The notes below the pieces were generated by a model. It ran no database searches. It worked only from the letters and a program-made list of their open reading frames with translations, and had not been told where the DNA came from. The position numbers and the translations under genes are program-made. A stretch of 64,000 nt of DNA. It comes from Candidatus Dojkabacteria bacterium. GTDB lineage: Bacteria > Patescibacteriota > Dojkabacteria > JAFGLO01. The DNA is taken from contig JAFGLO010000011.1 in NCBI GenBank assembly GCA_016927995.1, forward strand, positions 391 to 64,390, in the 5' to 3' direction. This document shows positions 25,512 through 52,227 of this stretch, in pieces (position 1 is the first letter of the stretch; the number at the start of each line of letters is the position of its first letter).

Positions 25512-27290
25512 CTAAATGCTTTTCAACATATCATCAATTCTATTTAGACCCTTTTCCCAAAACTCTTTTTTGGTAATGTCGATTCCGAGTTCCAGAAAAA
25601 TCTCCTTTGGTGACTTAGAAAGTCCAGTGCTTAAAAATGTTTTTACCTTTGAAATTGTCTTTGGGTCTTTTTGTACCATTGCTTGCAATGCCTTTGAGAT
25701 AAGTAGGCCGCTGGCATATGAATAAACGTAAAATGGGGATCTAATGTGAGACCAATGAACCCACCAATTTTCAGAACCTTTGTCGGCTGAAACCGCTGGT
25801 CCCATATATGCTTGCATGTGAGTTTTAAACATAGCTGATATTTCTTTTGCGCTTAAATACATTTGTTTACGAAATGTTGCATGCAGTTCTTTTTCGAAAT
25901 TATAAAGCGCAACCTGTCTAAAAATTGTTGAAACGTCGTTGCCTAGCTTGTCCATAAGCAAAAGCCTTTTCGTGGAATCGGAGATGGATTTATTTAAGTT
26001 TTCAAAAACGAAATCCTCAAAAAATGTACTTGCAACTTCTGCAGTGCTTGTAGGTGTTCCGTAGTTTAATATGTCTTGATGTTTTGCGATTAGTTCATTA
26101 TTTATTCCGTGGCCTAATTCATGTGCGATTGTTAGAATGTCTGATTCGTTTCCAGAGTAGTTTAGAAGAATGTAAGTTGGATATTTTGGCTTAACTGCGG
26201 CACAGTATGCCCCACCCGATTTACCTTTTTGTGGGAATACGTCGAATCTTCTTTGAGAAAAAAAGTTCTTTGCAAGCTCACCCAGTTCAGGATCAAGTGA
26301 AGTATATGTTGATAGTACAATTTTTTGAGCCTGAGAAAATTCATATTTTAGGGACTTGGGATTTAAGGGGAATGTTCGCTCATGATATTTTAGCCTTTTT
26401 TTGCCCAGTATTCTGGCACGGGCTTTGTAGTATCGTTTTGAAAGGTCGAATCGCTTGGTTACTGCACTTACCATTGCATCAACGACACTTGTGTCTATGT
26501 CGTCCGATATATGACGGGCTTCGTCAGGGCGAATGTGTCCTCGCAATTTGTCGGAAACTCTTTTAAATTCCAGAATAGAGTTAAGCTCTTCTGTTGCAAT
26601 TTCACGCTTTTCGTATACTATTTTATGAATTATTTTTGCGCTGCTGTCGCGCAATTTTGAATCACGGCTCGATAGATTTTCAATTATTTGATTAAATGGT
26701 TGTTTCTTTTTTATGCCTTTGGTTGTTGTTACGTATCCTTCGGTTTTGTTTACCTGTTCCTCTAAAAACTGTGTCCAATTTGAATACGCAGGTTTGCTTA
26801 AAAGTGAAAATAAGTTCTCTTCCTTTTCGGAAAGCAGGTATTTTCCTTCAATGAATAATCTTTTTAGCATGTGCGAGTACTTTTGTAATGGTTTGTAGGC
26901 TAGCATTTTAGGCTGCAGGTTTTTTGGAATTTTTGATATTTTGAGAGTAAAAAAGGTAAGACTGTTTGAAAGCTCCGTTGCTGTTTGATTTATGTTGTTG
27001 AATTGTTTTTTTATTGTTATATCTTGGGCATTTTGATCACGTCTTAAGTAGTAGTAAAACCAAGCTTTGTCTATTGAATGATTGCTGTTTGCAAGGATTT
27101 CATAATCTAGTAGTGCTTTGTGTAGTGCCTTGGGATCTTTTAAATATGCTTTTGCGGTTTTATATTTTTTTACAAAGTCGGAGATCTCTTTTTTTGAGAT
27201 TTTTACATCTTTTTCTATTTGTGGGTCGGAATCGCTTTTATATAAAAGGCTTAAGTCCCACGTGTAGTTTTTTGCTGGTTGTACAATCAC
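25512..27290 (-). CDS. pepF: Oligoendopeptidase F (M3B family)
   Basis: HELGHGINN (HExxH) lies in the typical M3B context and the overall length is 592 aa. Confidence 0.85.
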   Translation of the reverse strand: MIVQPAKNYTWDLSLLYKSDSDPQIEKDVKISKKEISDFVKKYKTAKAYLKDPKALHKALLDYEILANSNHSIDKAWFYYYLRRDQNAQDITIKKQFNNINQTATELSNSLTFFTLKISKIPKNLQPKMLAYKPLQKYSHMLKRLFIEGKYLLSEKEENLFSLLSKPAYSNWTQFLEEQVNKTEGYVTTTKGIKKKQPFNQIIENLSSRDSKLRDSSAKIIHKIVYEKREIATEELNSILEFKRVSDKLRGHIRPDEARHISDDIDTSVVDAMVSAVTKRFDLSKRYYKARARILGKKRLKYHERTFPLNPKSLKYEFSQAQKIVLSTYTSLDPELGELAKNFFSQRRFDVFPQKGKSGGAYCAAVKPKYPTYILLNYSGNESDILTIAHELGHGINNELIAKHQDILNYGTPTSTAEVASTFFEDFVFENLNKSISDSTKRLLLMDKLGNDVSTIFRQVALYNFEKELHATFRKQMYLSAKEISAMFKTHMQAYMGPAVSADKGSENWWVHWSHIRSPFYVYSYASGLLISKALQAMVQKDPKTISKVKTFLSTGLSKSPKEIFLELGIDITKKEFWEKGLNRIDDMLKSI

Positions 27291-28546
27291 TATAAAAGCT
27301 CTTCAAATTGAATTTTTTTAAGGAGATTTCTGTCTAGAATAATATGCTCTTTGGGATCAAATTTATCAGTTGTTACTCGAACTAGTCGAGTTTTGTATTT
27401 TTCTTTGTATAGAATTTTGTTATTTCTTTTTATAAAGTCATTTATTTTGTTATAGAATAATCCTATATATTCATAATCCAGACTATTTAAATCAGCTGAT
27501 GCGTTTATAAGCGGTTCAATTTCTTTTACTCGATTTCCCTCTTCTATTTTGACATCTGAGAAGTCAAACCAATAACTACTTAGTGCTACAACAAATCTGA
27601 TCGAAGTGTCGTTCTCGCTATTAAAAATATAAGTTATCTCCCTAGTCTCAGTTTGCAGATAGGTTTTTAAATATAGCTGGTCAAAACTTGTAACCTTGTA
27701 AACTTTGTATGAATTTATGAGTGTAAGAAATGTCGGTCTCCAATTTTCAATCCATAAGTCATAGTTTGTTCTGTCGTAGAAGAATTGGGCAAGGTCCTTT
27801 TCAAAAAGATTGTCGTCAAGATTAGCAACTCTTAGTTTAAGCTTATCAAGTAAGTCTTTCAGTGTTTCATATTTCTCTTTATTCAGCTTAAAATATTCAA
27901 TATCAGGGTATGTATTACGCTTTAAATACCAGATGAGATCGTAGATATCTCTTGGCTTGCAATTTGTTTTTTCTTCACCAATTCCTCGATCATTTCTGTT
28001 TATTACCGCAAGTATTTTACTGGACATAAGCGTGGAAATAGGATAAGTTTTTATTGTATAAGTTAAGTTATCATGAACAATCGGAATTGTTTCTGTAATT
28101 AATTTGTTGGCTTCGGGAAAGTAATTAATATCAAACCTAATTTTCAATTTTGACCACGAAACGTTGATGCCAAGTGCTTCAATAATATCAAGACCGATCA
28201 TAAGTGTACTTGTTTTTATACCTTCTTTGATAGATATGTCCACTGTTTGTAAATATCGGTTTTTAAAATGTGAAATTAAGGAGGTTCTAAGTGCTGGTAA
28301 GTCTAGTTCTTCAGCGGTTTGGAAATCAAGGTCCTCTGACATTCTTGGCAATTCATAACCTATCCGTAAAAGGGATCCGCCATACATTATCAGTTTTGAG
28401 TATGGTGCGCTGTTGAATATATAGTTTAGAATGTAATGCTGCAGCTCTTCTTTTATTGCGTTTATTATAATGATATCGGTATGTCCGGCTTCTTTAAGAG
28501 TAGCTACTTTTTCTTTAAGCTTTTTTACAAGGATAGATTCGCTCAT
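27290..28546 (-). CDS. AbiEii/AbiGii-family nucleotidyltransferase toxin (type IV TA)
   Basis: It contains YGGSLLRIGYELPRMSEDLDF (the GGxxL...R.S.D.D nucleotidyltransferase motif of DUF1814/AbiEii). It overlaps the antitoxin gene by 1 nt. Confidence 0.75.
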   Translation of the reverse strand: MSESILVKKLKEKVATLKEAGHTDIIIINAIKEELQHYILNYIFNSAPYSKLIMYGGSLLRIGYELPRMSEDLDFQTAEELDLPALRTSLISHFKNRYLQTVDISIKEGIKTSTLMIGLDIIEALGINVSWSKLKIRFDINYFPEANKLITETIPIVHDNLTYTIKTYPISTLMSSKILAVINRNDRGIGEEKTNCKPRDIYDLIWYLKRNTYPDIEYFKLNKEKYETLKDLLDKLKLRVANLDDNLFEKDLAQFFYDRTNYDLWIENWRPTFLTLINSYKVYKVTSFDQLYLKTYLQTETREITYIFNSENDTSIRFVVALSSYWFDFSDVKIEEGNRVKEIEPLINASADLNSLDYEYIGLFYNKINDFIKRNNKILYKEKYKTRLVRVTTDKFDPKEHIILDRNLLKKIQFEELL

Positions 28547-29154
28547 TATATTGATTTAATAAGTTCAAATAAGGCATGGCGCTCTATTTTATCTAGTATA
28601 CCTATATCGAGACGGTACTCTTCGGTTGCATTAATAAGTTTTGTTTTGTTTCTCAAGGTATCGATTGGTATTCGATAATATAAGTAATCAAATATGGCTT
28701 TGTAAGGGCTTGCAATGCTTATTTTAAATTCTTTATTTAATATTATGAATCCATTAAACAGTTGAGCTTTTATGCTTTTGTAGTGGAAAATTCCGATCCT
28801 ATTTGTAAACTTACGTGTTGCTTTTGGGGTAACAGATGTTATAACTGAGGATATTCCCTCTGTAAGAATTCCATAGTATGATAGTGCGCTTTCCATTGAT
28901 ATGTAGGATGGTTCAACCAACTTATTTCCTACCATATAGCTGTACATTAGATTTGATTTGTGTGCGTCAAAGTATTTTTTTGTCGTATAAAAATTACGCT
29001 TTAGGCTTAAGATCTCTTTGTTTTTTATGCTTCGCTGGATATAGGTATTTATGGTTGTGGTGGGAATTGATAAGCGATCTGCAGAGACTAAAAGACTCTC
29101 TTTTGTGAAATACGGTGAATTTTCAAACTGTGAAAAAAAGGACAGCCTTTTCAT
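28546..29154 (-). CDS. AbiEi-family antitoxin / transcriptional regulator
   Basis: The conserved AbiEi core is SYISMESALSYYGILTE. It lies immediately upstream of the AbiEii gene. Confidence 0.7.
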   Translation of the reverse strand: MKRLSFFSQFENSPYFTKESLLVSADRLSIPTTTINTYIQRSIKNKEILSLKRNFYTTKKYFDAHKSNLMYSYMVGNKLVEPSYISMESALSYYGILTEGISSVITSVTPKATRKFTNRIGIFHYKSIKAQLFNGFIILNKEFKISIASPYKAIFDYLYYRIPIDTLRNKTKLINATEEYRLDIGILDKIERHALFELIKSI

Positions 29155-29206
29155 TTACGTTTTAATACAAATTTGTATTATATTGTAAATAAACGTTATT
29201 GTTTTG

Positions 29207-29446
29207 TCAAGTATTTTTCCTTTGGTTATACCATCTTCTAAAAAGCTCAATTGCAAATAAAACTGAATCGTCGGTTTGACCGACAAACGGTGTAAAGTCC
29301 GGGATTATATCAAGCGGCCAGATAAGATAAATTATGGCGACGATTAGTAGCCAGTTTTCTTTAAGAAAGTTTTTAATCTTCATTTTTCCAATATACTCCA
29401 TCACGATTAAATACATATTATCATGCCTGTGATTAAACCGCCACAT
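29207..29446 (-). CDS. DUF1232 (YkvA-like) small membrane protein
   Basis: The DUF1232 motif is LIWPLDIIPDFTPFVGQTDD. Confidence 0.6.
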   Translation of the reverse strand: MWRFNHRHDNMYLIVMEYIGKMKIKNFLKENWLLIVAIIYLIWPLDIIPDFTPFVGQTDDSVLFAIELFRRWYNQRKNT

Positions 29447-29510
29447 TTGACAAAAGGCTTTAGATTGTGATATTGTTTCTGTAAGTAACTAAATACAGTA
29501 ACAAAGAGAA

Positions 29511-30116
29511 ATGAGATACGTTGATTTAAAGACAAAACTGAAAGAAATTGTTGTATTTAGTCTTAACGATATAAGACAATGGGATCCTTCTTTCTATAGA
29601 AATCGGTTAATTGAATGGTTAGATAAAAGATATATAATCAGATTACGTCGAGATAGATATATGTTTTCTGATACTGATATCTTTGAATCTAGGCTTTTTC
29701 ATATAGCGAATCGAATATATTCTCCTTCTTATTTATCACTTGAAACGGCATTATCTTATTATGGACTTATTCCGGAAACTGTTTATTCTATAACCTCAGT
29801 TACCACAAGAAAGACAAACGAATTTGAAAATAATTTGGGGAAATTTATGTATAGAACGGTAAATTCAAACTTATTTTGGGGTTATGACATAGTGCATGGC
29901 TCTCAGGTTGCAGAAATAGAAAAGTGCATTTTAGATTATTTTTATTTGAATCCAAATATTGATAATGAATCTGATTTTTTTGAACTAAGGTTTAATGGTG
30001 AAGATTTTTTGAAAAGATACTCAAAGGAAAAGTTTAATAAATATCTTAAAATTTTTGATAATAAGGCATTAAATAGTAGAGTAGATAAATTCATGAGGTT
30101 TTTAAAAAATGCTTGA
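29511..30116 (+). CDS. AbiEi-family antitoxin (second copy, divergent orientation)
   Basis: It contains SYLSLETALSYYGLIPE, paralogous to the 28546..29154 gene. Confidence 0.7.
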   Translation: MRYVDLKTKLKEIVVFSLNDIRQWDPSFYRNRLIEWLDKRYIIRLRRDRYMFSDTDIFESRLFHIANRIYSPSYLSLETALSYYGLIPETVYSITSVTTRKTNEFENNLGKFMYRTVNSNLFWGYDIVHGSQVAEIEKCILDYFYLNPNIDNESDFFELRFNGEDFLKRYSKEKFNKYLKIFDNKALNSRVDKFMRFLKNA

Positions 30117-30882
30117 TATTAAAGATATTGCAAAATATTTTGATGGAAGCCAGTATATAAGTCCTCGACATATGCTGAGGGAATATTTGCAGTATAAGAT
30201 CCTAGATCTATTTGTAGATAGTAAAATTGGTAATAAAATATCATTTCTTGGAGGTACGTGTATTCGAATTGTACATAATAGTTTTAGATTTTCAGAGGAT
30301 CTGGACTTCGATAATTTTAGTTTATCTTATGAGGAATTTATTGAAGCTTCAAAAACAATAAAGCGAGGTTTAAGCCTGGAAGGATTTGAAGTTGAAATCA
30401 GAAATATCAAAAAAGGAGCATATCATTGTAATATTAAATTCCCAGAATTACTTTATAAAAATAAACTTACTCCATTGCAATCAGAAAAGATTCTGATTCA
30501 AATTGATACTTTATCACATGGCTTTACCTATAAACCCGATGTATTTTTACTTAATAAGTTTGGTGTTATAAGAAATATTTTAGTTACACCTACTGACATT
30601 CTTTTAGCTCAGAAAATTTACGCATTGTTTAATAGAAAGCGTCCAAAAGGTAGGGATTTTTTTGATGTGATTTTCTTATTAGGTTTCACAAAGCCTAATT
30701 ATGAGTATCTTGATTACAGACTTAATATTAATAAGCCGGTTGATTTAAAGGGGTACATTTTAGAAAAAAGTGAAGGTTTAGATTTTAAAGCTCTTGGAAA
30801 GGATGTTTCTCCATTTTTATTAAACTTAGAGGATGTAAGAAAGGTTGAAAGGTTTAGGGATGTGATTGGGAGTGTTTTATAG
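30109..30882 (+). CDS. AbiEii-family nucleotidyltransferase toxin (second copy)
   Basis: It contains FLGGTCIRIVHNSFRFSEDLDFD. It overlaps the upstream antitoxin by 8 nt. Confidence 0.75.
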   Translation: MLDIKDIAKYFDGSQYISPRHMLREYLQYKILDLFVDSKIGNKISFLGGTCIRIVHNSFRFSEDLDFDNFSLSYEEFIEASKTIKRGLSLEGFEVEIRNIKKGAYHCNIKFPELLYKNKLTPLQSEKILIQIDTLSHGFTYKPDVFLLNKFGVIRNILVTPTDILLAQKIYALFNRKRPKGRDFFDVIFLLGFTKPNYEYLDYRLNINKPVDLKGYILEKSEGLDFKALGKDVSPFLLNLEDVRKVERFRDVIGSVL

Positions 30883-30997
30883 TGAATCGTCAACCTGACC
30901 AACAAGTGGTGTGAAATCCGCGATTATATCAAGCCGGCCAGATAAGATAAATAATTGCCACTACTAGTAGCCAGTTTTGTTTTAGGAAGGTTTTCAT
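30883..30997 (-). pseudogene. Degenerate 5' fragment of a second DUF1232 gene copy
   Basis: About 85% nucleotide identity to 29275-29400 of the intact DUF1232 gene, including its ATG. The frame is broken after about 22 codons. Confidence 0.55.
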
Positions 30998-31046
30998 GTA
31001 CTAATTGTACTATAAATTCGTGGATTTTAGTAAATTTGCGGTGATC

Positions 31047-31433
31047 TTACAGTAAGTCGCTCATATGCAAATCTTCTATCAGCTTGTCGTAGTTATACGC
31101 ATATTCCAGTTTTTGAGCTTCTGTAAACGAAAACCAGCCAAACTGTGCGACTTCACTTTCTTGGGGAACTATTTTCCCTTTGCCGATGCCTATGAAAATA
31201 TATGTGTCTGGATCTACAAAGGTAATTGGCTTAAAGACCTTTGTGATTGTAAATTTTAGGCCAACTTCCTCTTTGGCACCTCTGACAACGGCAATATCTG
31301 GGGATTCGCCTTCTTCGACAGTCTCATTTATGGGATTCCATTTCCCGGGTTCAGAATAGTCTGTTAGTGGTCGTTGAGTTAGTAATATCTTTCCATTTTT
31401 TATTATGACTCCGCATGCATGTAATTCTTTCAT
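31047..31433 (-). CDS. NUDIX hydrolase
   Basis: The Nudix box is GKWNPINETVEEGESPDIAVVRGAKEEVGL. Confidence 0.75.
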   Translation of the reverse strand: MKELHACGVIIKNGKILLTQRPLTDYSEPGKWNPINETVEEGESPDIAVVRGAKEEVGLKFTITKVFKPITFVDPDTYIFIGIGKGKIVPQESEVAQFGWFSFTEAQKLEYAYNYDKLIEDLHMSDLL

Positions 31434-31508
31434 GGTCTATTATAGCATTATATTTTGTTTTTCTCACTAGCTCTAACATACATATACATTGTACACAATC
31501 ACATATTA

Positions 31509-32027
31509 TTATGAATCCCGCATACTTTTGCCATTTTCAAGTTCGTCCATTAAAGCAGGAGTTATTTCTTTAAGCAATGTATGCCAATCTAAACCAGGAA
31601 ATTGCATCTCTGGCTCTATATAACTCCAGTACCAAAGCCGAGGTTCGTCGCCCGCCCCTATGTAAATGATGTGTCCAGGTCTTGGAATACATGGTCCTTC
31701 TCTGTCGGGAATATATTCGCCTGTTTCAATATTTCTAACTGGCTCAATATGGAAGGATTCAGAGTCTACAAGTTTAAGGTTGGGCTGGGTACCGATCCAT
31801 TTACCGTTAGGAAAATACATTCTGACTATTGCCCATTCATAGCCGGCTGCAGAAAAATGACCAATACATCTTGTTATACAGAGTGGTTTTTCACGAAATG
31901 ATGTTTCCGAGTCAAATTTCTTGGAGGTCGCAAGATTATCCCATTGGATTGTTCTTCCAATAGTATAGTAATCGGGGTGTGGTAAACCATCATTTGAAAA
32001 AGGGGCTGTAGTAATTTCTATGGACAT
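31509..32027 (-). CDS. Hypothetical protein
   Basis: It is a 172-aa ORF with no recognisable motif and looks like a soluble protein. Confidence 0.4.
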   Translation of the reverse strand: MSIEITTAPFSNDGLPHPDYYTIGRTIQWDNLATSKKFDSETSFREKPLCITRCIGHFSAAGYEWAIVRMYFPNGKWIGTQPNLKLVDSESFHIEPVRNIETGEYIPDREGPCIPRPGHIIYIGAGDEPRLWYWSYIEPEMQFPGLDWHTLLKEITPALMDELENGKSMRDS

Positions 32028-32125
32028 ATGGTTTAGGCTTAACGCTTAATGAAGTATGATACTATGGGGTGGACTGATTGTCAATGGTAAAAGTTATTAT
32101 ATCTTTCTCCACTCGCGGCTATATT

Positions 32126-33121
32126 TTAGCCAAGAAGAAGTTTAAGCTCTTCGTATAGTTTATCGTTTAGCTCAAGTTTTCCTGATTTTAGGCAGGCCTG
32201 CCTAAGTTTTTGCGATTGCTCTCCTGGATAAAATATCTCTTTTACGCCTTTTTGCTTTGGAGAATTCTTAACTTCATTTATTAAAGATTCAACATCAGCT
32301 TTAAAGTCTTTTATGGATCGAAATATGGTTGGATCTATAAGAATAAAGAAAGAACCCCAGCCGCCTTTAATATTGTAACCGCATCGGGAGGTTGTTAATG
32401 CTCCCCCAAGGATTTCCACAATAAATGCGATTCCCGAGCCCTTGTGATCGGCAATAGGTAGTAACCCACCTTCCATTGATGCTTCGGGACTATTTGTTGG
32501 GTTCCCGTCTTTATCGATTGCAACGTTATCGGGTATTTCCTTTCCTTCGGCCTTTGCGAGAAGTAAGTGACCCCATGTTATTTTGCTTGACGACATGTCT
32601 AATATCAAAGGTATCCCGTTTGTTGGAATTCCAACGGTAAATGGATTTGTTCCAAAGATTTCTTTTATTGAGCTAAATGGTACAAGTCCACCCGGTGAGT
32701 TATTGAACCCGATAAAAATAATGTTATTTTCGGTGGCTTTGCGTGCATACTGTCCGATTAATCCCGAAATTGGTGCTGTATTTGTTACCCCAACGGCAAC
32801 AATTCCAGATTCTTTTACTTTGTTAAGTCCTAATTCAAGTGCTTTATTTATAACATAAAGGCCTGGTTTCTTTTGTCCGTTAACTAATATTGATACGGGT
32901 GTTTCTTTTTCTATAAAGATATCTTTTCCGCCTACAATGATTTTACCCTGCTGAACTTTTTCTATTAAAACGGGTATGCGTATAAAGCCGTGTGTTTTTT
33001 TGTTTGTGAGCTCGCCTTCAAGACAATTTTCGATACAGTACTGTGCTTCTTCTTCTGAAAATCCGGTTTTTGTCAATATTTTGGTTCCTAGGTCTGTTGC
33101 TTCTTTTATTGATATGATCAT
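32126..33121 (-). CDS. Malate/L-lactate/sulfolactate dehydrogenase family (Ldh_2) oxidoreductase
   Basis: The N-terminus reads MIISIKEATDLGTKILTKTGFSEEEAQYCIENCLEGEL...THGF and the Ldh_2-family architecture follows. Confidence 0.7.
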   Translation of the reverse strand: MIISIKEATDLGTKILTKTGFSEEEAQYCIENCLEGELTNKKTHGFIRIPVLIEKVQQGKIIVGGKDIFIEKETPVSILVNGQKKPGLYVINKALELGLNKVKESGIVAVGVTNTAPISGLIGQYARKATENNIIFIGFNNSPGGLVPFSSIKEIFGTNPFTVGIPTNGIPLILDMSSSKITWGHLLLAKAEGKEIPDNVAIDKDGNPTNSPEASMEGGLLPIADHKGSGIAFIVEILGGALTTSRCGYNIKGGWGSFFILIDPTIFRSIKDFKADVESLINEVKNSPKQKGVKEIFYPGEQSQKLRQACLKSGKLELNDKLYEELKLLLG

Positions 33122-33166
33122 GGATAATGGTTTTTATATTAGCTACTTTTCGCTTAGAACACGTAA

Positions 33167-34180
33167 TTATTTAGTAAGCTCGATGACTTTTTGCCAGATT
33201 TCGTCATCAACGTCAACAGTTCCTAATTCGGTTGCTTTTCTTAATCGTTCAAGATTATTATCTCCAGGTACAAGAACCGTTTCTCCTTTTTTAGGCTTTT
33301 GATTCCTTATAACTATATTAAACTCCGATACTTCTTTCTTAAATGAATCTGTGGAATTAAATGCATTAATATCAATCACGATTAAAAACCCGCCGTGTTC
33401 TTCATTTACATAGGTTGGATTCATTTTATTACTTAATTTTGCCCCAACCAAAGCTCCTGTCATTACTTCAATAAGGTAGTTAATGTTATACCCTTTATAA
33501 TTTGCTCCCATTGGAAGAATATTTGAAGTTCCATCTTCGGCTAAAGCTTTGTTTACATCCCTTGTTACATTTCCCTCGCAATCAACTGCTGAATTTTCAC
33601 GCAGTTCTTTATTTTCTTTTTTACAGTTACGTATTTCAAAGTATGGAATTTGAGAAGTTGCCATGTCTATAACAATCTCTCCTTCATTTGCTGGGAAAGC
33701 GTATGAAATTGGATTGGTTCCTAAAAGTCCTTGTGTTCCGTTAAATGGGATAACTCCTGATGGACCTCCATTATATCCAGCAATGGCAAAATACCCTCTT
33801 TTGGCAAGACCTTGAGTCCACGTGTGAAGCGTATGCATTCCTCCTGAGTTATCAAGTCCTAAAATGGAAATACCTGTTTTTTGAGCTTTTTCTATGAGTT
33901 TGTCATGAATCCATTTAATTTTAAAAGTCATTGGGAGGTTATGAAAATCAAGATGTAGTAAGCTTGGAAGCTCCTTTTTTACTTCTATTTCATTTCCTTT
34001 GTATTTTTCTTGTCGCTCTGTATCTGAAATAACTTCGTCTTTTAATACATTACATCTTGGATGTTTTCTAATGTATGCTTCAGATATTTCCTCTGCAAAA
34101 TATTTTGCCTCTTCTGATGAGACGTACTTAAGGGCAATTATTTGAAGATTAGTTTTTAGCTCGGTTATGCTTACTTGCAT
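33167..34180 (-). CDS. Ldh_2-family oxidoreductase (paralog)
   Basis: It has the family's HTLHTWTQG...GTNPISYAFP core. About 80% aa identity to the disrupted copy at 38.4-39.4 kb. Confidence 0.7.
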   Translation of the reverse strand: MQVSITELKTNLQIIALKYVSSEEAKYFAEEISEAYIRKHPRCNVLKDEVISDTERQEKYKGNEIEVKKELPSLLHLDFHNLPMTFKIKWIHDKLIEKAQKTGISILGLDNSGGMHTLHTWTQGLAKRGYFAIAGYNGGPSGVIPFNGTQGLLGTNPISYAFPANEGEIVIDMATSQIPYFEIRNCKKENKELRENSAVDCEGNVTRDVNKALAEDGTSNILPMGANYKGYNINYLIEVMTGALVGAKLSNKMNPTYVNEEHGGFLIVIDINAFNSTDSFKKEVSEFNIVIRNQKPKKGETVLVPGDNNLERLRKATELGTVDVDDEIWQKVIELTK

Positions 34181-34315
34181 TTTTAGTGAGGTTAAAACTT
34201 AGCTAATATGTTTTATTGTACATCCGTTACATGGATAATTAAACACACTAGAAGAGGACATATTTACAATGATTTGCGATATAATAGCAGGTGACGTTAT
34301 TTAAATGATGCTGGT

Positions 34316-34729
34316 ATGGCACTTTCAATCTTTCATTTGGATGGACAGGACATAGCTGTTAGTTATATTTCGGAGAGTGAAGTATTTTCTGGAGTTATTT
34401 GTGAGGTTTATACCATTCCTTCGGCTAATGGTAAATATGATCTTGGGGTTATTTATATAGATGCCGGTAAGGAAACTCCCCTACAGCGTGTTCTTAAGGG
34501 TAGCAAAACTGTAGAAGGACATATTAGTGGAAAAGGGAAACTTTTAATTAATCAGGGTTCGGACGACGAGGTGGTTTATGAAGTTAGCGATGATATGAGT
34601 GAGCCATTTCAGATTGAGGTTAAAGTTGGTCAAACTATGAAGTGGATTGCGAATCCGGAATCAAAGCTTACCGTTTATGAAATTTGCTACCCTCCTTATG
34701 AGGATGGTAGATATGAGAATTTAGAGTAG
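34316..34729 (+). CDS. Cupin-like small protein (hypothetical)
   Basis: It is predicted to be all-beta. A paralogous pseudogene lies at 36727. Confidence 0.4.
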   Translation: MALSIFHLDGQDIAVSYISESEVFSGVICEVYTIPSANGKYDLGVIYIDAGKETPLQRVLKGSKTVEGHISGKGKLLINQGSDDEVVYEVSDDMSEPFQIEVKVGQTMKWIANPESKLTVYEICYPPYEDGRYENLE

Positions 34730-35386
34730 CGTTGAGAGTGGGTTTAGTGATTTTACTTTTACAAAGACCGCCCGTTTAAAATATTGGTTGTCTGTTGAAA
34801 AGCAGATGATTTTTATACTATCTTTCGTTTGATTGATGATAGCTCTTTTGTATCCTGCTGAGTTGAAAAACGCCTCATGCTCTTCCGGATAGATAGTATA
34901 TCTCCATCCTATATCCACCATGTTATCAGTTATAAAATATGCTTTACCCTCCCACACAAACGTTGCTTCATTATTTTCAGGAGAATTTCTCACCTTAATT
35001 TGAAATTGATCTTCTTTCGAAAGAATGATCGTAGCATATGCTTGTGGTTTGCCTTTAAGAGAATAGTAATCCTTGAGGTTCTTGATTTCGCCCGTCTTTT
35101 TATCTTTCTCTAGGGTGTCAGTCATATATCCGAACTCCTCGTATTCCCCCTCCAGTAAAATGCGTTTCTTGATCTCCGAGAAGGCCGTGTAAATTTTTTG
35201 TGAGCCATCAACAGAAAGTGTAGTCAATATAGATAGCAAAATCACTCCAACTACTTTACCTGCGAAATTATCTTTATCCAAGGGATCACTAAATATAATG
35301 CAAGCAAGAAGACCAATAAAGACCAGTGATGTTCTCACAATGGGCCACCACTTGAATTTCCACAGTTTGAGTAATGTTTTTGCCAT
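34721..35386 (-). CDS. Hypothetical membrane-anchored protein
   Basis: It has two N-terminal TM segments and no known motif. Confidence 0.35.
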   Translation of the reverse strand: MAKTLLKLWKFKWWPIVRTSLVFIGLLACIIFSDPLDKDNFAGKVVGVILLSILTTLSVDGSQKIYTAFSEIKKRILLEGEYEEFGYMTDTLEKDKKTGEIKNLKDYYSLKGKPQAYATIILSKEDQFQIKVRNSPENNEATFVWEGKAYFITDNMVDIGWRYTIYPEEHEAFFNSAGYKRAIINQTKDSIKIICFSTDNQYFKRAVFVKVKSLNPLSTLL

Positions 35387-35464
35387 TCCTTATTTTTCTT
35401 GTTTATAGTTGTATTAATTGTCGTATTTTACTATAAACCACAATGGGAAACAAAAGAGAGAGAT

Positions 35465-36514
35465 TTAATCTTTGGACGACTTAATTTTTGTCTTTAGGTC
35501 ATCTTGTAGTTTCTTTATTAGTTGCTTTTCAAAGTCGCTTTCAATTTTTTGTGTTTTATTAAATTTAATATATTCAGAAATTGCTTTATTTTGAGCGATA
35601 TTCATTGAAATCGAGCCCTTCCCATCTAAAATCTTGTACTCATTAAACTCAAGAAACTTATCAACACTCTTAGCAAATTGTACCATTGTCAACGTTTTCT
35701 TGCTCTCAATTACGTTTTCAATATAGTCGAAGAAGCCGGAAACAGCTCGCTCAAGTTTTCTTATCTCTTTTTCTGACAAATAGTTCTTGGCAACCACTAT
35801 ATCGGATTTTAAAATACGTCCTTTGGGTGAATCTTTCCAAGTAGTTAAGCCCATGTATGGTTTCTTTTTATCGGCGTTAGAATGAATAATCTCTGCTGCG
35901 GTTTGTCCGGTTATAGCATAATGAAATTTGTTTTGAATCGTTGCAAAAAAGTCCTTTGTGATACGTGAGTTTGGATTGTAATCAATACTGCACTCCTGGA
36001 AAATGTCTGTGATTTGAAGATATATTCTACGTTCGCTTGATCGAATTGATCGGATACGCTCTAAGAGTTCTTTAAAATAATCCTTGCCGAAGTACCTGCC
36101 ATTACTCAACCTATCATCGTCCATTGCAAATCCTTTGATTATGTACTCTTTTAGTCGTTCTGTTGCCCAAATTCTAAATCTTGTTGCTTGTGAAGAGTTA
36201 ACCCTATAACCGACCGAAATTATTGCATCGAGGTTATAAAACTCGATTCTTCTGGAAACTTTGCGCATTCCCTCGTTTTGAACTATCCGGAATTTCCGGA
36301 TGGTTGAATCTCGTTGTAATTCTCCGCTTAAATATATGTTTTTTAAATGTTCGTTAATTGTTCTAACGTCAACACCGAATAGATCTGCCATTCTCTTTTG
36401 AGTTAGCCATATGTTCTCATTCGCAAAAAATACCTCCACCTTGATTTCTCCATCTGGTGCCGTATATAACAGGAATTCATTTAGTTCTTGTTTTATTGAA
36501 AGAGTATTCTTCAT
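35465..36514 (-). CDS. RhuM-family virulence protein
   Basis: The conserved core is RKFRIVQNEGMRKVSRRIEFYNLDAIISVGYRVNSSQATRFRIWATERLKEYIIKGFAMDDDRL. Confidence 0.75.
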   Translation of the reverse strand: MKNTLSIKQELNEFLLYTAPDGEIKVEVFFANENIWLTQKRMADLFGVDVRTINEHLKNIYLSGELQRDSTIRKFRIVQNEGMRKVSRRIEFYNLDAIISVGYRVNSSQATRFRIWATERLKEYIIKGFAMDDDRLSNGRYFGKDYFKELLERIRSIRSSERRIYLQITDIFQECSIDYNPNSRITKDFFATIQNKFHYAITGQTAAEIIHSNADKKKPYMGLTTWKDSPKGRILKSDIVVAKNYLSEKEIRKLERAVSGFFDYIENVIESKKTLTMVQFAKSVDKFLEFNEYKILDGKGSISMNIAQNKAISEYIKFNKTQKIESDFEKQLIKKLQDDLKTKIKSSKD

Positions 36515-36726
36515 TAATTTTGAAAATTTTTACGTAAATGCTTGTTAAAAGCCACTCCTGCCTTCTGTATTCTACTACAAACCACATCGAGAAACAAAAA
36601 GAGATTAAATAAAAGAAATAAAGTTTGTTATTTCCTACTGAATTTATTGCAAATTATTGTCAGTGGGTTTTGACTAGACACAATATACGATATAATAATA
36701 GCTGATGTTATTTAAATCACTCTTGT

Positions 36727-36988
36727 ATGACACTTTCAACCTTTAATTGGGATGGACAGGATAGAGTCATTAGATATATTTCGAAAAGTGAAGTAGTTCC
36801 CGGAGTTACTTGTGAGGTTTATACCGTTCCTTCCGCTAATGGTGAATATGATCTTGGGATTATTCGTATAGATGCCGGCTCAGAAACTCCCCTACAGCGT
36901 GTTCTTAGCGGATCCGGATTCAAAGCTTACTGTTTATGAAATTTGCTATCCTCCTTATGAGGATGGTAGATATGAAAATTTTGAGTAG
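36727..36988 (+). pseudogene. Cupin-like paralog with an internal deletion of about 190 bp and a frame break
   Basis: The N-terminal 55 codons and the last 25 codons align to 34316..34729. The middle is missing, and the junction (cttagcggatccggattcaaag) changes the frame. The upstream leader is also duplicated (34290-34330 versus 36700-36740). Confidence 0.55.
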
Positions 36989-37139
36989 GTTTGAATAAAA
37001 GGATTAACCAGGGCGGGCGCCTGTTCGCCTCTGGCGAGGAATCAGGCTTCGAACTTTTTTCAATCAAAAACCTCTTCTAAAGTCTTGTACATTTTTTTGC
37101 TGTGACATTTCCCCATTTAGGATGTTCAATCATTCTTCT

Positions 37140-37478
37140 TTATTTTATATACATCCCTACATTCAAAAAATCGATTAGCCAGAAAAGATTTACAACATAC
37201 TCTGTTATTTTTAGTATTGTTCCTTGAAAAAAGCTAGGATTATGATAGTTTAGAATAATACTACTTACGAGTATAACAATTGGAAGATCAAAAAATAATA
37301 TGTTCCCCCAAAAATATTTTTTAGCTTTATGAGACAGTTGTAACGAATATAATCCTGAACCATGAGAAAGAGTAAGTGACAACAGGAATGGTCTTGATAA
37401 TATTTTCGAAGAATATTCTTTTTGATTCATATAATTGCTATCACAGTTAAATTTTAAGGAGATATTGTTCCTACTCAA
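37140..37478 (-). CDS. Hypothetical small membrane protein
   Basis: It is a hydrophobic 112-aa ORF in a cassette bounded by att-like repeats. Confidence 0.3.
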   Translation of the reverse strand: MSRNNISLKFNCDSNYMNQKEYSSKILSRPFLLSLTLSHGSGLYSLQLSHKAKKYFWGNILFFDLPIVILVSSIILNYHNPSFFQGTILKITEYVVNLFWLIDFLNVGMYIK

Positions 37479-37675
37479 CTTGGAGAGTGGAACTTACCTT
37501 GAGCCCTTCGATATTGCGGTCAAAAACAGACATGTGTTCGTTAAACGGGGCGGAACCATTAGCCTCAATTTTACTTAAAATTAGTTTAGAGTGAATCCGT
37601 TTGGGAGATACGAGTTTCCAAAGGCAAGTTTTAAGGTTAATTATCTGTTTTTATTATAATAATATTTTTCTGTAT

Positions 37676-38230
37676 TTAAGAAATCCATGTCGGGATCGAT
37701 AAAAAAGGATCTTTGTCGTGTTGAATTCTATAATGTTTCTGTCCAGATTCACACATTGGTCCACAATGAATATGTCGCTCTTCAACCTCGACTTCTTCTA
37801 CATATCTATCAGATACTTTGTCATATACCTTTACAGTAGATAGTTCAATAAGATCTCCGATATAATAAATCGAGATTTCCGATATAATTATTTCGTTTGT
37901 AGTTAAGCCTTGCTCTTCAATATATTGTTTTATGTTTTTTGATTCTTGACTATTATACTTAACCTCGTTTAAGTAGTTAATAACGTCTGAGTAATTAAAT
38001 GTTAAAATTACGTATTCAGATTCATATATCACCGTTTTGATTTCATCAACAGGATTTAAGTTAATTGTTTTATAGGTGACTTCTATCTTGTTTTTTATTT
38101 TCACCAAATAATTGGAAATAAAAAGAACTCCAAGCAATATAAAAAGAAGAATGAAAGCTATAGCTAGCAATGGGAAGTATTTATGCGACGAAAATTTGGG
38201 GAGTTGAGACTTCATAACTGCATTTGTCAA
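37676..38230 (-). CDS. Hypothetical membrane-anchored protein
   Basis: It has an N-terminal TM. The C-terminus contains HIHCGPMCESGQKH. Confidence 0.35.
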   Translation of the reverse strand: MTNAVMKSQLPKFSSHKYFPLLAIAFILLFILLGVLFISNYLVKIKNKIEVTYKTINLNPVDEIKTVIYESEYVILTFNYSDVINYLNEVKYNSQESKNIKQYIEEQGLTTNEIIISEISIYYIGDLIELSTVKVYDKVSDRYVEEVEVEERHIHCGPMCESGQKHYRIQHDKDPFLSIPTWIS

Positions 38231-38354
38231 ACACTTAAAACGGAGCGGACGGGATATGGCTCGAACTTTTAGTTTTGATTTTATGAAAGAATGGTGTATT
38301 GAGAATCCGTTTTGGAGGTATAAGTTTCCGGAGTTGAGTTTTAATTATGATTAT

Positions 38355-39367
38355 TTAGTTATCTAGAATTTTAACTTTATTCCAAATGTCTTCTTCAATT
38401 TCAACCATTCCAGATTTATTAACTTCGTCAAGTCTATTAAGATTATTATCTCCTGGCACAATGACATGTTCTCCTTTTTTTGGTCTTTGTTGGCGAATTT
38501 CTCTGTTGAACTCTGAAATTTCATTTTTAAAAGATTGAATACTGCCGAAAGCCTCAATATTTATTACTATAATGAATCCTCCATGATCCTCATTTACATA
38601 TCCTGGATCCATCTTGTTGCTCAACTTAGCCCCTACAAGAGCTCCAGTCATTATTTCAATTAGATAGTTTATATTATACCCTTTGTAATTGCCGCCCATA
38701 GGTAAAATATTTGAAGTACCGTCTTCTGCTAATGCTTTATTTGCATCTCTAGTTACATTTCCTTCTGTATCAACCGCTGAATTTTCTCTTAAATCTTTAT
38801 TATCTTTTTTACAATTACATATTTCGAAATATGTGATCTGGGATGTGGCCATGTCAACGACGATTTCTCCTTCTGACGTCGGGAAAGCGTATGAGATCGG
38901 ATTCGTTCCAAGTAATCCGCAGGTTCCATTGATGGGGACAACACCCAAAGGACCCCCATTATATCCTGCTAATGCAAAATAACCTCTCTTTGCAATTCCT
39001 TGTGTCCATGTATGAAGTGTATGCATTCCACCTGAATTATCAAATCCAAGAATACTAATCCCTGTTGTACTTGCTTTTTCTATGAGCGTATCGTGAATCC
39101 ATTTTATCTTGAATGTCATTGGAAGATTATGAAAGTCTATGTGTAATAGGCTGGGCATATCTTGTACGATTTCTATTGCATTCATCTTATATTTTTCTTG
39201 TCGCTCTGTATCCGATAGGATCTCATCTTTAGTACATTTGATCTAGGATATTTTCTGACATAAGCTTCGGATAGTTCTTTTGAAAAGTACTCAGCTTCTT
39301 CTTCGGAAACATATTTTAGTGCTACTTTCCGTAGTTTATCTTGCAACTCATCTAATTTAACTTGCAT
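38355..39367 (-). pseudogene. Ldh_2-family paralog disrupted by a 1-bp deletion (split into 61-aa and 276-aa ORFs)
   Basis: Nucleotide alignment to the 33167..34180 paralog shows one missing base around 39215-39240 (aaagatgagatcctatcgg versus aaaagacgaagttatttcag). It could instead be an assembly error. Confidence 0.55.
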
Positions 39368-39662
39368 TATTATTGTTTTACAAATTATTTATATAACTGT
39401 TAAATTATAGCACAAATCGTTTTGGCTCGAACTGTCCAAATGTTGAGAAAATCGAGTACTAATAATACTAACTGAGTAATACAAAGAAACCATGTCCGTT
39501 CACCCCAAAACACAAAAATGCTGATATTACGAGGATATTTTAAGCTGGCGGGGTGGACGGAATCAGGCTCGAACTTATAGTTTCAACTTTTTAAGAGATG
39601 GTCGTTACAGAATCCGTTTTGGAGGTATGATGTGCCGAAGGTGAGTTTTGAGATAGACTTAC

Positions 39663-40706
39663 TTAGTTATAGTCTGTTAGAGATAAAATCTTTTTATTGA
39701 AGGTAAGATCTGAGTCTATGGTTGATGCATTCCTTATTGCATCATAAATACTTTCTCGAACGGCAGATATTGCAGATTGAGCTAGAATATCAACTTTAAA
39801 TTTCCACCATTCTCCATTTTCAATACTTTTACCTTCATCTGAAAATGGGAAGTCAACTTCTTGAGTAGAAAAAACAAAAACAGTATCTCCATCGAAAGAG
39901 GTATTAATAGGGTCTATTGCTCTAGCCTGACCAATATGCACTAATTCTGCAATACGAGTTAAATCCTGTTGGAGAAAATCAAGTTTTAAATTTGTTCCTA
40001 CGATACTTATCGTAGTATTACAAGTATAATAATCAGAAAATCCTTTGAAAGTTCTAAATTTAAAGTCGGAATTGTTGTGTCTGTTACCAGCAATAATCTC
40101 TCCTTTCTCATTAACTACATTTCCCAGGGCATTAACAACGGACATAGCAGTTACAATACCATCTTTTCCAATCTTTTCACTAGCATGTCCTAGACCACCT
40201 TTCATTGCAAGAGAAGTTTTATCATCTAACCACGAGAACTTTCCAACCGATGCTCCATATCCAGCACCAATATTTCCACTTTGAACAGGTTTGCTTGAGA
40301 TGTTTTCCACTACTTTGAGTCCAAGTTTATAGTCAAGCTTCGTAGAATGAATTCCAAGTGAACTGATCACGGCACCCACAATGGATGGTTTGTAAACAGA
40401 GTTATTTTCAAAGCCAATCTTTAATTTTGAAAGACCTTCGTTTATGTAGCTTGAAAAGTTTAATCCATCATGTCCACCATCAGCTATATATATTGCATGT
40501 CTCAAATAATAGTTTTTGTCTAAAGATAGATTTGTAGTATTGTAGGTTACAGATGCCCCTCCTTTTGAAACACATGCTACATTGAGTGGTTTAGGAAATA
40601 CAACTAGTGTTAACCCGTACTGCATATTTCCATCTTGTACATTTCCAACACGAACTCCGCTTAGCTGTGTTAACGAATTGTTTTGGAAGTTTTTATTAGA
40701 GTCCAT
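39663..40706 (-). CDS. DmpA/S58 (P1) family aminopeptidase/amidase
   Basis: The ArgJ/DmpA-fold signature is recognisable (GVRVGNVQD..., GAGYGASVGK, TNLKLD auto-processing region). Confidence 0.65.
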   Translation of the reverse strand: MDSNKNFQNNSLTQLSGVRVGNVQDGNMQYGLTLVVFPKPLNVACVSKGGASVTYNTTNLSLDKNYYLRHAIYIADGGHDGLNFSSYINEGLSKLKIGFENNSVYKPSIVGAVISSLGIHSTKLDYKLGLKVVENISSKPVQSGNIGAGYGASVGKFSWLDDKTSLAMKGGLGHASEKIGKDGIVTAMSVVNALGNVVNEKGEIIAGNRHNNSDFKFRTFKGFSDYYTCNTTISIVGTNLKLDFLQQDLTRIAELVHIGQARAIDPINTSFDGDTVFVFSTQEVDFPFSDEGKSIENGEWWKFKVDILAQSAISAVRESIYDAIRNASTIDSDLTFNKKILSLTDYN

Positions 40707-40885
40707 ACAGTTGATTATATCATTTTTAAAAGTATTTATGCTCGAACTTTAAATACTCCCTTAATAACAGTAGAAGATTGATATATCCGTGGATGTAAGT
40801 TTCATATTAAGGAATTCGGCTCGAACCGAGAAAATGCTTATTTATCAACAAGAAATCGTCATTTTTTAGAGGTATGTTCGTTAAA

Positions 40886-40960
40886 CGGGGCGGACGGGGA
40901 TCGAACCCGCGACCTTCCGCGTGACAGGCGGACGTTCTAACCAAACTGAACTACCACCCC
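40886..40960 (-). tRNA. tRNA-Asp (GTC)
   Basis: Folded by hand: acceptor GGGGUGG/CCGCCCC, D arm GUUC..GAAC, anticodon stem UCCGC/GCGGA with loop CUGUCAC, T arm GCGGG-UUCGAUC-CCCGU, discriminator G. No CCA is encoded. Confidence 0.85.
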
Positions 40961-41106
40961 ATTTTGTGGTAACAGTATTGTAAAAGAAAATCACCAAATC
41001 CGCAAGATATGCTAAAATAAAAATAGCTAAGGTAAGTTCAGCTACATTTGTATAGACCCTGTTTTTAAGTAACAAAGGGTTAATAAACCATTTATCCGAT
41101 ATCGGT

Positions 41107-41676: not shown

Positions 41677-41753
41677 GACGTGAAATTGTGAATAGTAATA
41701 TGGGCGTGCCTGCCTGTCTATCGACAGATAGAGACTCGGACCTATATTTCATA

Positions 41754-41827
41754 TGGGCGTGCCTGGACTCGGACCAGGGACCCCAGTCTTATCAGGACTG
41801 TGCTCTAACCAGCTGAGCTACACGCCC
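41754..41827 (-). tRNA. tRNA-Ile (GAT)
   Basis: Folded by hand: GGGCGUG-UA-GCUC AGCUGGUUA GAGC-A-CAGUC CUGAUAA GACUG-GGGUC-CCUGG UCCGAGU CCAGG-CACGCCC-A. Confidence 0.85.
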
Positions 41828-42002
41828 CTAACGAAATTAGGGTGTGGCAAACCTTTTAAGCTGCCTGTCCGCCTCTGGCGGAAGCTACACGCCCCTAACG
41901 GTGATTACTATTATCGGGACTTGTGTATTTTATGGGAATTCTTGCGAAAGTGCAAGCAGAGGTGGATTAAGTTAATGAGTATTTCACCATTACATATCTT
42001 AA

Positions 42003-51663: not shown

Positions 51664-51976
51664 GCAGTAAACAGTAGGGATTAAATGGTAATTAAATCCG
51701 ACAGGATCGGTCGGGACGTGTTTCTATCTTATTCCTAGTTCATATATCTAGACGTATTTTTTGATTAGCCAGCAGTGAGAATCGAACTCAGCGTGCTACC
51801 TCTTGCACGCTATCTTTCCCGAATCTAATGTACGGGAAGAATTTAATAAGAAACGGAATCGGTTCAAGTAATTAATAGTAATAAGCCGGCAATCGGAATT
51901 GAGCGAGCATCCTTGGCGAGCTACGCAAAGTCGATGGCAATCAACTGAAACAGAAACTGAGTTCGTAATGGATATT

Positions 51977-52049
51977 AGCCGGCAATCGGAATTGAACCGA
52001 TGACCTACGGTTTACGATACCGCCGCTCTACCAACTGAGCTATGCCGGC
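51977..52049 (-). tRNA. tRNA-Thr (CGT)
   Basis: Folded by hand: GCCGGCA-UA-GCUC AGUUGGUA GAGC-G-GCGGU AUCGUAA ACCGU-AGGUC-AUCGG UUCAAUU CCGAU-UGCCGGC-U. Confidence 0.8.
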
Positions 52050-52227
52050 CCCAATAATAATCTGTCGGTCATAGCGAACTTGTCCGCCTCTGGCGGAAGC
52101 TATGCCGGTGAAAGTGCAACTAGACGAACAAAAAACAACGTTACTAATGATTATACTATTGAATCTGTCATTTTGCCAGAATAGATGATTGACTATCATG
52201 GCTATCATCGGCTATAATTAGTTATCA

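Follow-up and report, generated by a model that had tools for sequence, protein, structure and literature searches.

Immediately 3′ of the tRNA-Asp gene in a 64-kb stretch of DNA from a Candidatus Dojkabacteria genome (WS6, Candidate Phyla Radiation, CPR), four genes on the minus strand form an array that was probably assembled from single-gene cassettes, stacked by site-specific recombination at the 3′ end of the tRNA. The stretch, referred to here as the window, has a GC content of ~0.38 and makes up most of a 64.8-kb contig assembled from run SRR13394437. The array occupies the tRNA-proximal 3.9 kb (37.0-40.9 kb) of a composite flexible region of 13.6 kb, which is anchored on tRNA-Asp and holds two kinds of content: the proximal array and a distal mosaic (27.3-37.0 kb). 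A preliminary description of this DNA had treated the entire 13.6 kb as a decaying accessory island, and had missed both the att-like repeats and the conserved mini-ORF (open reading frame) that divide the proximal 3.9 kb into cassettes.

Read away from tRNA-Asp on the minus strand, the array has the order leader-S58-r3, leader-Ldh_2-C-r2, orf184-r1 and orf112-r0, where r3 to r0 denote the sequences trailing each cargo gene (Table 1). Between tRNA-Asp and r0, the last recognisable boundary of the array, lie four cargo genes, three of them followed by a trailer of ~130 nt and the fourth by a degenerate remnant. Each unit contains a single gene and spans about 0.5-1.3 kb. Trailers r3, r2 and r1 belong to one repeat family of ~110-140 nt (nhmmer E=1e-27 to 1e-34); each begins directly after the stop codon of its cargo and ends in a tRNA-Asp-like 3′ end, and the repeat as a whole comprises this tRNA-like core together with a 36-aa ORF on the opposite strand.

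The relationship of the array to the tRNA is seen at several boundaries. In r1 there is an exact direct repeat of 20 nt, composed of the last 8 nt of tRNA-Asp and 12 nt of its downstream flank, which sits 3.35 kb from the tRNA; none would be expected by chance (E=5e-6). Further copies of the 12-nt core are present in r3 and r2, both of which end in GTTCGAGCC..CCGTCCRCYCCG, homologous to the T-arm and the acceptor 3′ end of tRNA-Asp. The motif GTTCGAGCC occurs four times in 64 kb versus 0.14 expected, and all occurrences are on the minus strand within 38258-40826. Core or T-loop-like motifs were absent from 27.3-37.0 kb.

A leader starts right after the core and combines a TTCGAGCC(A)AA motif with an extended -10 promoter (TGnTATAAT). 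The extended -10 is seen for cassettes 1 and 2; in cassettes 3 and 4 the leader is short or only partly present. As consensus matches only, TGnTATAAT is found upstream of S58, of Ldh_2-C and of the first cargo gene in each of the two related loci described below (L028 and L031); the motif is common upstream of genes throughout the window, and a sigma-70 consensus scan of 36.9-41.1 kb gave no enrichment over shuffles.

The mini-ORF within the trailer is a real gene under purifying selection. It is the only stop-free frame of six, its pairwise dN/dS (ratio of nonsynonymous to synonymous divergence) is 0.06-0.13, and differences fall at codon positions 1/2/3 in the proportion 16/6/33. Its ATG lies inside the T-loop-like part of the core, while the acceptor-like part of the core forms its Shine-Dalgarno-like sequence (GGAxGG). 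In the window it is intact in r2, frameshifted in r3 and degenerate in r1; homologs were detected in two other metagenomic genomes, L028/L019 and L031 (protein P0121 in the latter). A word-indexed protein search with the mini-ORF returned one 37-aa protein, and an exhaustive HMMER search of 1.84 billion representative proteins recovered only that protein, P0121, and one spurious repeat protein. The family is essentially unannotated, and the possibility that the mini-ORF forms the terminus of an integrase or some other larger protein was rejected. The 3′ end of the cargo overlaps the mini-ORF convergently in all three genomes, by ~85 nt in L028 (2675-2762), 19 nt in L031 (10096-10114) and ~12 nt in the window, an arrangement that would make antisense coupling of cargo and mini-ORF transcripts possible.

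The same ends enclose entirely different cargo in the two other genomes. In L028/L019 (GC 0.33) the order is tRNA-Asp, leader, a Ser-hydrolase gene, a major facilitator superfamily (MFS) transporter gene and trailer. This trailer is 85% identical to r2, the tRNA-Asp is 81% identical to that of the window, and no homologs of window proteins were found in L028/L019. The leader that follows tRNA-Asp in L028 is homologous to the leader of cassette 2, situated between r3 and Ldh_2-C (TTTTGTGTTTTGGGGTGAACGGA ... TTCGAGCCAAAA ... TGCTATAAT). In L031 (GC 0.47) the order is core with a TTTAACGAACA...GTTTTTGACC leader, TTCGAGCCAAA, TGGTATAAT, an ATP-binding cassette (ABC) ATPase gene and trailer; the flank of the core, TTTAACGAACACACCTCTGTTTTTGACC, is 94% identical to 37518-37549 and 90% identical to the flank of the window tRNA-Asp, and the trailer is 89% identical over 75 nt. 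A matched leader and trailer therefore recur in three lineages with unrelated cargo between them, and two of these loci are at tRNA-Asp. Neither L028 nor L031 has a recombinase beside the element, the neighbours being an Ig-like-domain protein and transporters. An rve transposase ~8 kb from the element in L028 was set aside, as it looks like an unrelated insertion sequence.

These observations suggest a model in which the array would have grown through successive rounds of site-specific recombination in or close to the 12-nt core CCGTCCRCYCCG, which corresponds to the T-stem and the acceptor 3′ strand. The sequence that follows the core would come from the newest cassette, with older ones shifted away from the tRNA, and these older units would then decay, leaving the mini-ORF broken in r3 and r1, only a remnant in r0 and a frameshift in the Ldh_2 cargo. 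As read from the sequences, the 3′ strand of the acceptor stem gives a U5·G68 wobble in the present tRNA-Asp, whereas the core copy in r3 (CCACCCC) would pair perfectly with the tRNA-Asp 5′ strand; this difference and the cassettes' own extended -10 promoters fit such a build-up. Because the cassettes carry no recombinase, they would depend for movement, in trans or in cis, on an enzyme whose gene lies elsewhere, and would thus be akin to cis-mobilizable elements. The 36-aa protein could assist recombination as an accessory factor, or act in stabilisation.

Several observations weigh against this model. No recombinase or integrase domain was identified when most ORFs of at least 110 aa in the window were put through Pfam, with four further ORFs covered only by precomputed Pfam calls on a contig of Logan, an independent assembly of the same run. 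Compared with real tRNA-Asp genes, every copy of the element has the same 5 extra nt inserted in its T-loop-like part, which is accordingly a portion of the element itself, one that would travel with it, and not the displaced end of a host tRNA. At synonymous sites the element copies are close to saturation (dS 0.7-1.7), so the element is old and conserved and was not recently transferred. In L031 the tRNA upstream of the unit is tRNA-Ser, at a distance of ~105 nt, and within 10 kb there is no intact tRNA-Asp. Among the matches listed, the element was found in three genomes only: a metagenome pattern scan, too strict to catch L031, listed 14 matches, 12 of them fortuitous and in high-GC contigs, and no matches were obtained in phages, plasmids or IMG/VR. 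There is also no close relative with which to compare an empty site. The best relative of the M3 oligopeptidase that flanks the region (among 5.8 billion proteins and GTDB species genomes) is only 52% identical; it is from a WS6 genome that does not have gene order or neighbours in common with the window. Finally, orf112 may be spurious and not a real gene, and the 13.6 kb lack a boundary repeat on the left.

An alternative is local duplication without site-specific mobility, in which the mini-gene and the tRNA 3′ end were tandemly duplicated by unequal crossing-over or slippage and unrelated genes came to lie between the copies later, the mini-ORF being a conserved chromosomal small gene beside tRNA-Asp. 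The high synonymous divergence among copies of the element, in one genome as well as across genomes, points to long residence and would be expected under this alternative, as would the lack of a recombinase in the window; short partial copies lie close to other tRNA genes of the window as well and could reflect a general process of local duplication. However, unequal crossing-over would copy the cargo along with the repeats, and this is not seen: the cargo is entirely different in the three genomes and among the four units here, while leaders and trailers are kept as a matched pair around it. The L031 unit, moreover, is not beside tRNA-Asp. We regard local duplication as unlikely.

It is less probable still that the whole ~13.6 kb is one classical island or prophage remnant at tRNA-Asp, with an integrase since lost and internal repeats that are incidental products of decay. 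The location at a tRNA 3′ end, the lower GC and the defence cargo agree with such an origin, and decayed islands without integrases are common (PMC5704250). Mean gene GC is 0.343 in the region versus 0.379 elsewhere (p=0.002). The deviation is however confined to two intervals, with tetranucleotide distances from the rest of the window of z ~5 at 27-31 kb and ~3 at 36-40 kb; at 31-34 kb (NUDIX, orf172 and two Ldh_2 genes) z is below 1.6 and the sequence looks native. Composition thus describes a mosaic with a native-like centre, and codon-usage likelihood hardly tells the island genes apart from the rest of the window. Just one tRNA repeat is exact, and its distance from the tRNA is 3.35 kb and not 13.6 kb. 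At 27.3 kb neither an att-type sequence nor a boundary repeat was found; the M3 oligopeptidase gene begins with a GTG that overlaps the AbiEii-A stop codon, leaving no att-type boundary visible at this end. Phage or plasmid similarity for the element was also absent. The earlier claim of an island at tRNA-Asp accordingly holds in part. The region is accessory-like, anchored on the tRNA-Asp 3′ end, with recurring partial 3′ ends, lower GC and defence genes, but the tRNA repeats bound only sub-units of the proximal 3.9 kb, and of the compositional comparisons proposed with that claim, gene GC separates the region, tetranucleotides do so at 27-31 and 36-40 kb only, and codon usage scarcely does so at all.

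An assembly or binning artefact, with mosaic, frameshift and deletion arising from chimeric assembly of strain variants, is very improbable. Logan contigs do break at 30100-30128 and inside tRNA-Asp, which hints at branching in the assembly graph. Breaks inside tRNAs are nevertheless expected from k-mers common to different organisms, and one Logan contig runs unbroken over 30100-40921. The Logan assembly is 100% identical to the window over 15512-41806, including the Ldh_2-C frameshift and the 152-bp deletion described below, and the lesions are therefore not specific to one assembler; the pseudogenes and fragments on which the preliminary description based its view of ongoing decay are thus present in two assemblies of the same reads. 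At 30100-30128, the junction of AbiEi-B and AbiEii-B, one Logan contig ends and another starts with a 29-nt overlap, which suggests a branch in the assembly graph, possibly from strain-level variation. The least credible alternative, an integron-like array (cluster of attC sites lacking integron-integrases, CALIN) in which the repeats would be attC sites recombined as single strands by an IntI-type integrase, has in common with our array the same-orientation single genes separated by ~100-nt repeats, and toxin-antitoxin and unknown genes are typical integron cargo, but here the repeats fold no better than shuffles (z +0.8, -1.1, +1.0), have no imperfect palindromes, are homologous to a tRNA 3′ end and hold a protein-coding ORF under purifying selection, the region has no inverted repeats, the cassettes have their own promoters, and no integrase was found. 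A structured-RNA or attC reading of the repeats was likewise rejected, since Rfam gave only tRNAs at E<=1 and folding did not exceed that of shuffles.

The closest known kinds of element are tandem t(m)RNA (tRNA or transfer-messenger RNA) islands and cis-mobilizable elements (CIMEs). Published examples include tandem islands that have partial t(m)RNA repeats at their borders and in some cases lack integration genes (bioRxiv 10.1101/2020.12.28.424599; PMC3146451; PMC5704250). In Dehalococcoides, ssrA islands are stacked downstream of the t(m)RNA gene with ~20-bp direct repeats of its 3′ end, and some units without integration genes were proposed to be cis-mobilizable (PMC3146451). They resemble the Dojkabacteria array further in having extra conserved sequence beside the repeat and insertion around the T-loop and acceptor (PMC3146451). 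The Dehalococcoides islands are however mostly several kb or larger and carry a six-gene integration module with a serine recombinase, whereas the units here are single genes of ~0.5-1.3 kb without a recombinase and the repeat-adjacent sequence encodes a 36-aa protein. Tycheposons and tRNA islands of Prochlorococcus likewise occur in a streamlined genome, integrate at tRNAs, push older elements inward and leave partial tRNAs and degraded elements scattered (bioRxiv 10.1101/2020.12.28.424599). Tycheposons differ in having a tyrosine recombinase and a replication module, and in belonging to another phylum and another att family; domain scans found no primase or helicase replication module in the region or window. 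CIMEs retain attL and attR, lack integration and transfer genes and lie in tandem at the 3′ end of the target gene (PMC5704250), and the cassettes here are similarly bounded by core copies, with one cargo gene each and no integration or transfer genes. CIMEs are, on the other hand, understood as decayed integrative and conjugative elements (ICEs) or integrative and mobilizable elements (IMEs) of many kb, no ICE or IME partner was seen in the window, and the conserved leader and trailer, which enclose a different single gene each time in three genomes distant from one another, give the impression of a designed cassette format and not of random decay. Integrons and CALINs share the single-orientation arrays of single genes, the ~100-nt repeats and cassettes without an internal integrase, and are set apart by the lack here of an attC hairpin and IntI, and by the promoters, the tRNA anchor and the protein-coding repeat of our array.

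More tentatively, CPR bacteria may carry an undescribed integron-like cassette system that docks at the tRNA-Asp 3′ end, in which promoter-bearing, recombinase-free cassettes of a single gene, with a ~170-nt leader and a ~130-nt trailer encoding a 36-aa protein, would be inserted and stacked by a recombinase encoded elsewhere. CPR bacteria (Patescibacteria) have tiny genomes, and their gene exchange is little understood; such cassettes, if they exist, would offer a compact route to gene gain and loss. With them would come a 36-aa protein family that is nearly always overlooked by gene callers, only one homolog having been found among ~15 billion predicted proteins.

Table 1. Features of the tRNA-Asp-anchored region, from the tRNA outward (window positions; core and cassette functions are putative)
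Feature	Position	Strand	Remarks
tRNA-Asp (GTC)	40885-40961	minus	anchor
Putative recombination core	40886-40897	minus	CCGTCCGCCCCG, 3′ 12 nt of tRNA-Asp
Flank	40875-40885	minus	TTTAACGAACA, start of first cassette leader
Leader of cassette 1	40714-40826	minus	upstream of S58 ATG
Leader 1, degenerate T-loop-like part	40810-40826	minus	GGTTCGAGCCGAATTCC
Leader 1, motif	40740-40749	minus	AAGTTCGAGC
Leader 1, extended -10	40714-40722	minus	TGATATAAT
Cargo 1, Peptidase_S58 family gene	39663-40706	minus	347 aa; profile match
Trailer r3	39535-39674	minus	frameshifted mini-ORF copy ~39567-39664 (plus strand)
r3, T-loop-like motif	39566-39574	minus	GTTCGAGCC
r3, core copy	39549-39560	minus	CCGTCCACCCCG, then CCA
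Leader of cassette 2	39404-39510	minus	TTTTGTGTTTTGGGGTGAACGGA, then CAGTTCGAGCCAAAA (39421-39434), then TGCTATAAT (39404-39412)
Cargo 2, Ldh_2 copy C	38355-39367	minus	pseudogene
Trailer r2	38227-38366	minus	GTTCGAGCC 38258-38266; core copy CCGTCCGCTCCG 38241-38252
Mini-ORF, intact	38256-38366	plus	36 aa, MARTFSFDFMKEWCIENPFWRYKFPELSFNYDYLVI; in r2
Cargo 3, orf184	37676-38230	minus	GC 0.305; N-terminal hydrophobic segment; no function assigned
Trailer r1	37520-37659	minus	degenerate mini-ORF copy ~37594-37653 (plus strand); T-loop part deleted
r1, 20-nt tRNA-Asp repeat	37535-37554	minus	followed by leader-type TTTAACGAACACATGTCTGTTTTTGACC
Cargo 4, orf112	37140-37478	minus	GC 0.274; no function assigned
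Trailer remnant r0	37005-37055	minus	AAGTTCGAAGCCTGATTCC..TCGCCAG; resembles r3 with deletion
Small all-beta gene copy B	36688-36994	plus	pseudogene; 152-bp deletion and frameshift
RhuM / PDC-S05 gene	35465-36514	minus	Pfam, PADLOC
orf221	34721-35386	minus	no function assigned; overlaps 3′ end of all-beta copy A convergently
Small all-beta gene copy A	34277-34735	plus	intact; ORF 34316-34729, 137 aa; no family match
Ldh_2 copy B	33167-34180	minus	intact, 337 aa; profile match
Ldh_2 copy A	32126-33121	minus	26% identical to copies B and C
orf172	31509-32027	minus	native-like composition
NUDIX hydrolase	31047-31433	minus	Pfam; native-like composition
DUF1232 fragment	30880-30997	minus	residues 24-62; own frameshift at 30934
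AbiEii-B	30109-30882	plus	Pfam, PADLOC
AbiEi-B	29511-30116	plus	Pfam, PADLOC
DUF1232 gene	29207-29446	minus	intact, 79 aa; Pfam
AbiEi-A	28546-29154	minus	Pfam, PADLOC
AbiEii-A	27290-28546	minus	Pfam, PADLOC

The distal part of the region is an older mosaic, composed of two low-GC AbiE modules around DUF1232, native-looking Ldh_2 and NUDIX genes, and RhuM with its neighbours. The two AbiE pairs, RhuM and NUDIX named in the preliminary description were all recovered with Pfam and PADLOC. For the AbiE pairs, PADLOC gave E=2e-36 and 4.5e-62 for AbiEi and E=1.3e-27 and 5.4e-92 for AbiEii, and the Pfam family PF08843 matches both toxins. GC of the AbiE genes at 27-31 kb is 0.28-0.33, the lowest values of the region (0.28-0.30) belonging to the AbiE-B pair, which is bracketed by the two DUF1232 homology blocks. 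AbiE and RhuM (PADLOC PDC-S05) are family matches with strong scores, and only one feature is unusual: AbiEii-A has 418 aa compared with 257 aa for AbiEii-B, and with the family domain limited to residues 28-269 it carries a C-terminal extension of ~150 aa in which no domain was matched. The intact DUF1232 gene does have a fragmentary copy, as previously reported, which is however internal (residues 24-62) and not a 5′ fragment, with 81-84% DNA identity at a distance of 1.62 kb, abutting the AbiEii-B stop codon.

RhuM is flanked by direct repeats of 44-47 nt (35423-35469 and 36567-36610, 81% identical), each upstream of a gene start (orf221 and RhuM); they are read as a duplicated promoter region.

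All three reported Ldh_2 genes are present, and one has indeed lost 1 bp. Copy C matches residues 1-47 of copy B in one frame and residues 47-332 in another, and relative to its paralog lacks one A from an A4 run near 39228. Copies B and C are mutual closest relatives, with 78% protein identity compared with 67% for the best match outside; copy A, at only 26% identity to both, is a distant paralog and not a recent duplicate. The closest homologs of Ldh_2-B elsewhere are 59-67% identical (L032-L036), and their contexts contain no element, no tRNA-Asp and no other genes in common; Ldh_2 as a travelling cassette elsewhere was not borne out by these contexts. In L034 (9038-11468), the closest-but-three homolog lies between a 2-hydroxyacid dehydrogenase gene and a NUDIX gene. 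Because this Ldh_2-NUDIX neighbourhood is found also outside the island, it may be functional, and because it recurs at an unrelated locus, NUDIX is not evidence of mobility, contrary to its earlier listing as a mobile-element hallmark.

The two small genes previously called cupin-like proved to share a leader, with homology that includes ~40 nt upstream of the ATG, and one of them has an internal deletion, which measures 152 bp and not 190. The copies align at 84.5% over 34277-34496 and 36688-36907 and at 91% over 34649-34735 and 36908-36994; since the homology blocks join directly in copy B, this copy lacks 34497-34648. The 137-aa product had no Pfam, NCBIfam or PDB sequence match even at E<=1. 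A low-confidence AlphaFold2 (AF2) model is all-beta (predicted local distance difference test, pLDDT, 50), and Foldseek searches with it gave weak matches, many of them cupins (E>=0.02, template modelling (TM) scores 0.2-0.3).

The paralog pairs differ widely in age. Ldh_2 B/C are saturated at synonymous sites (proportions of synonymous and nonsynonymous differences, pS 0.77 and pN 0.155), indicating an old divergence and a recent frameshift. DUF1232 and its fragment (dS 0.66-0.93, dN/dS 0.13-0.14) also diverged long ago, with truncation later, and all-beta A/B (dS 0.19-0.25, dN/dS 0.4-0.9) are a young duplicate under relaxed selection. The duplicated units are single genes without common flanks and of three different ages, which is not compatible with one recent segmental duplication as had been proposed. 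Apparent fresh segmental duplications can thus be old, separately maintained genes, and here this was revealed only by synonymous-site divergence. The sole other duplication cluster in the 64-kb window lies at 52.4-53.5 kb, on the 5′ side of tRNA-Thr, with two NYN-domain genes (52228-52761 and 53243-53725) of 58% protein identity and fragments of 70-80% DNA identity between them.

Partial tRNA copies also occur at two other tRNA genes of the window. The last 19 nt of tRNA-Thr (51976-52050, minus strand), CAATTCCGATTGCCGGCT, are repeated exactly 93 nt downstream at 51884-51902, and a second copy resembling the T-arm and acceptor, GAGTTCGATTCTCACTGCTGGCTA, lies downstream of this tRNA at ~51770-51800. 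These copies (51770-51902) resemble att scars, or cassettes that have been emptied, at a second tRNA. At tRNA-Ile (41754-41827) partial copies are present on both sides: the 5′ end with its upstream flank is repeated at 41883-41900, and immediately downstream (41698-41742) there are second copies of the T-loop, GGTCCGAGTC, and of the acceptor end, AGGCACGCCCATAT, with a small hairpin between them. A hairpin-containing motif, CGCCAGAGGCG(G/A)ACAGGC, is found upstream of tRNA-Ile (41860-41878) and inside r0 (37015-37033), and r3 holds a related motif (...CCCCGCCAGCTTAAAA); it may be a shared piece of a tRNA-associated repeat. Elsewhere in the window, a 373-aa ORF (45692-46813) had weak matches only, to Fic/DOC (E=0.013) and to a C-terminal helix-turn-helix (HTH; E ~0.002-0.003), and may encode a divergent protein of the Fic type whose tail binds DNA.

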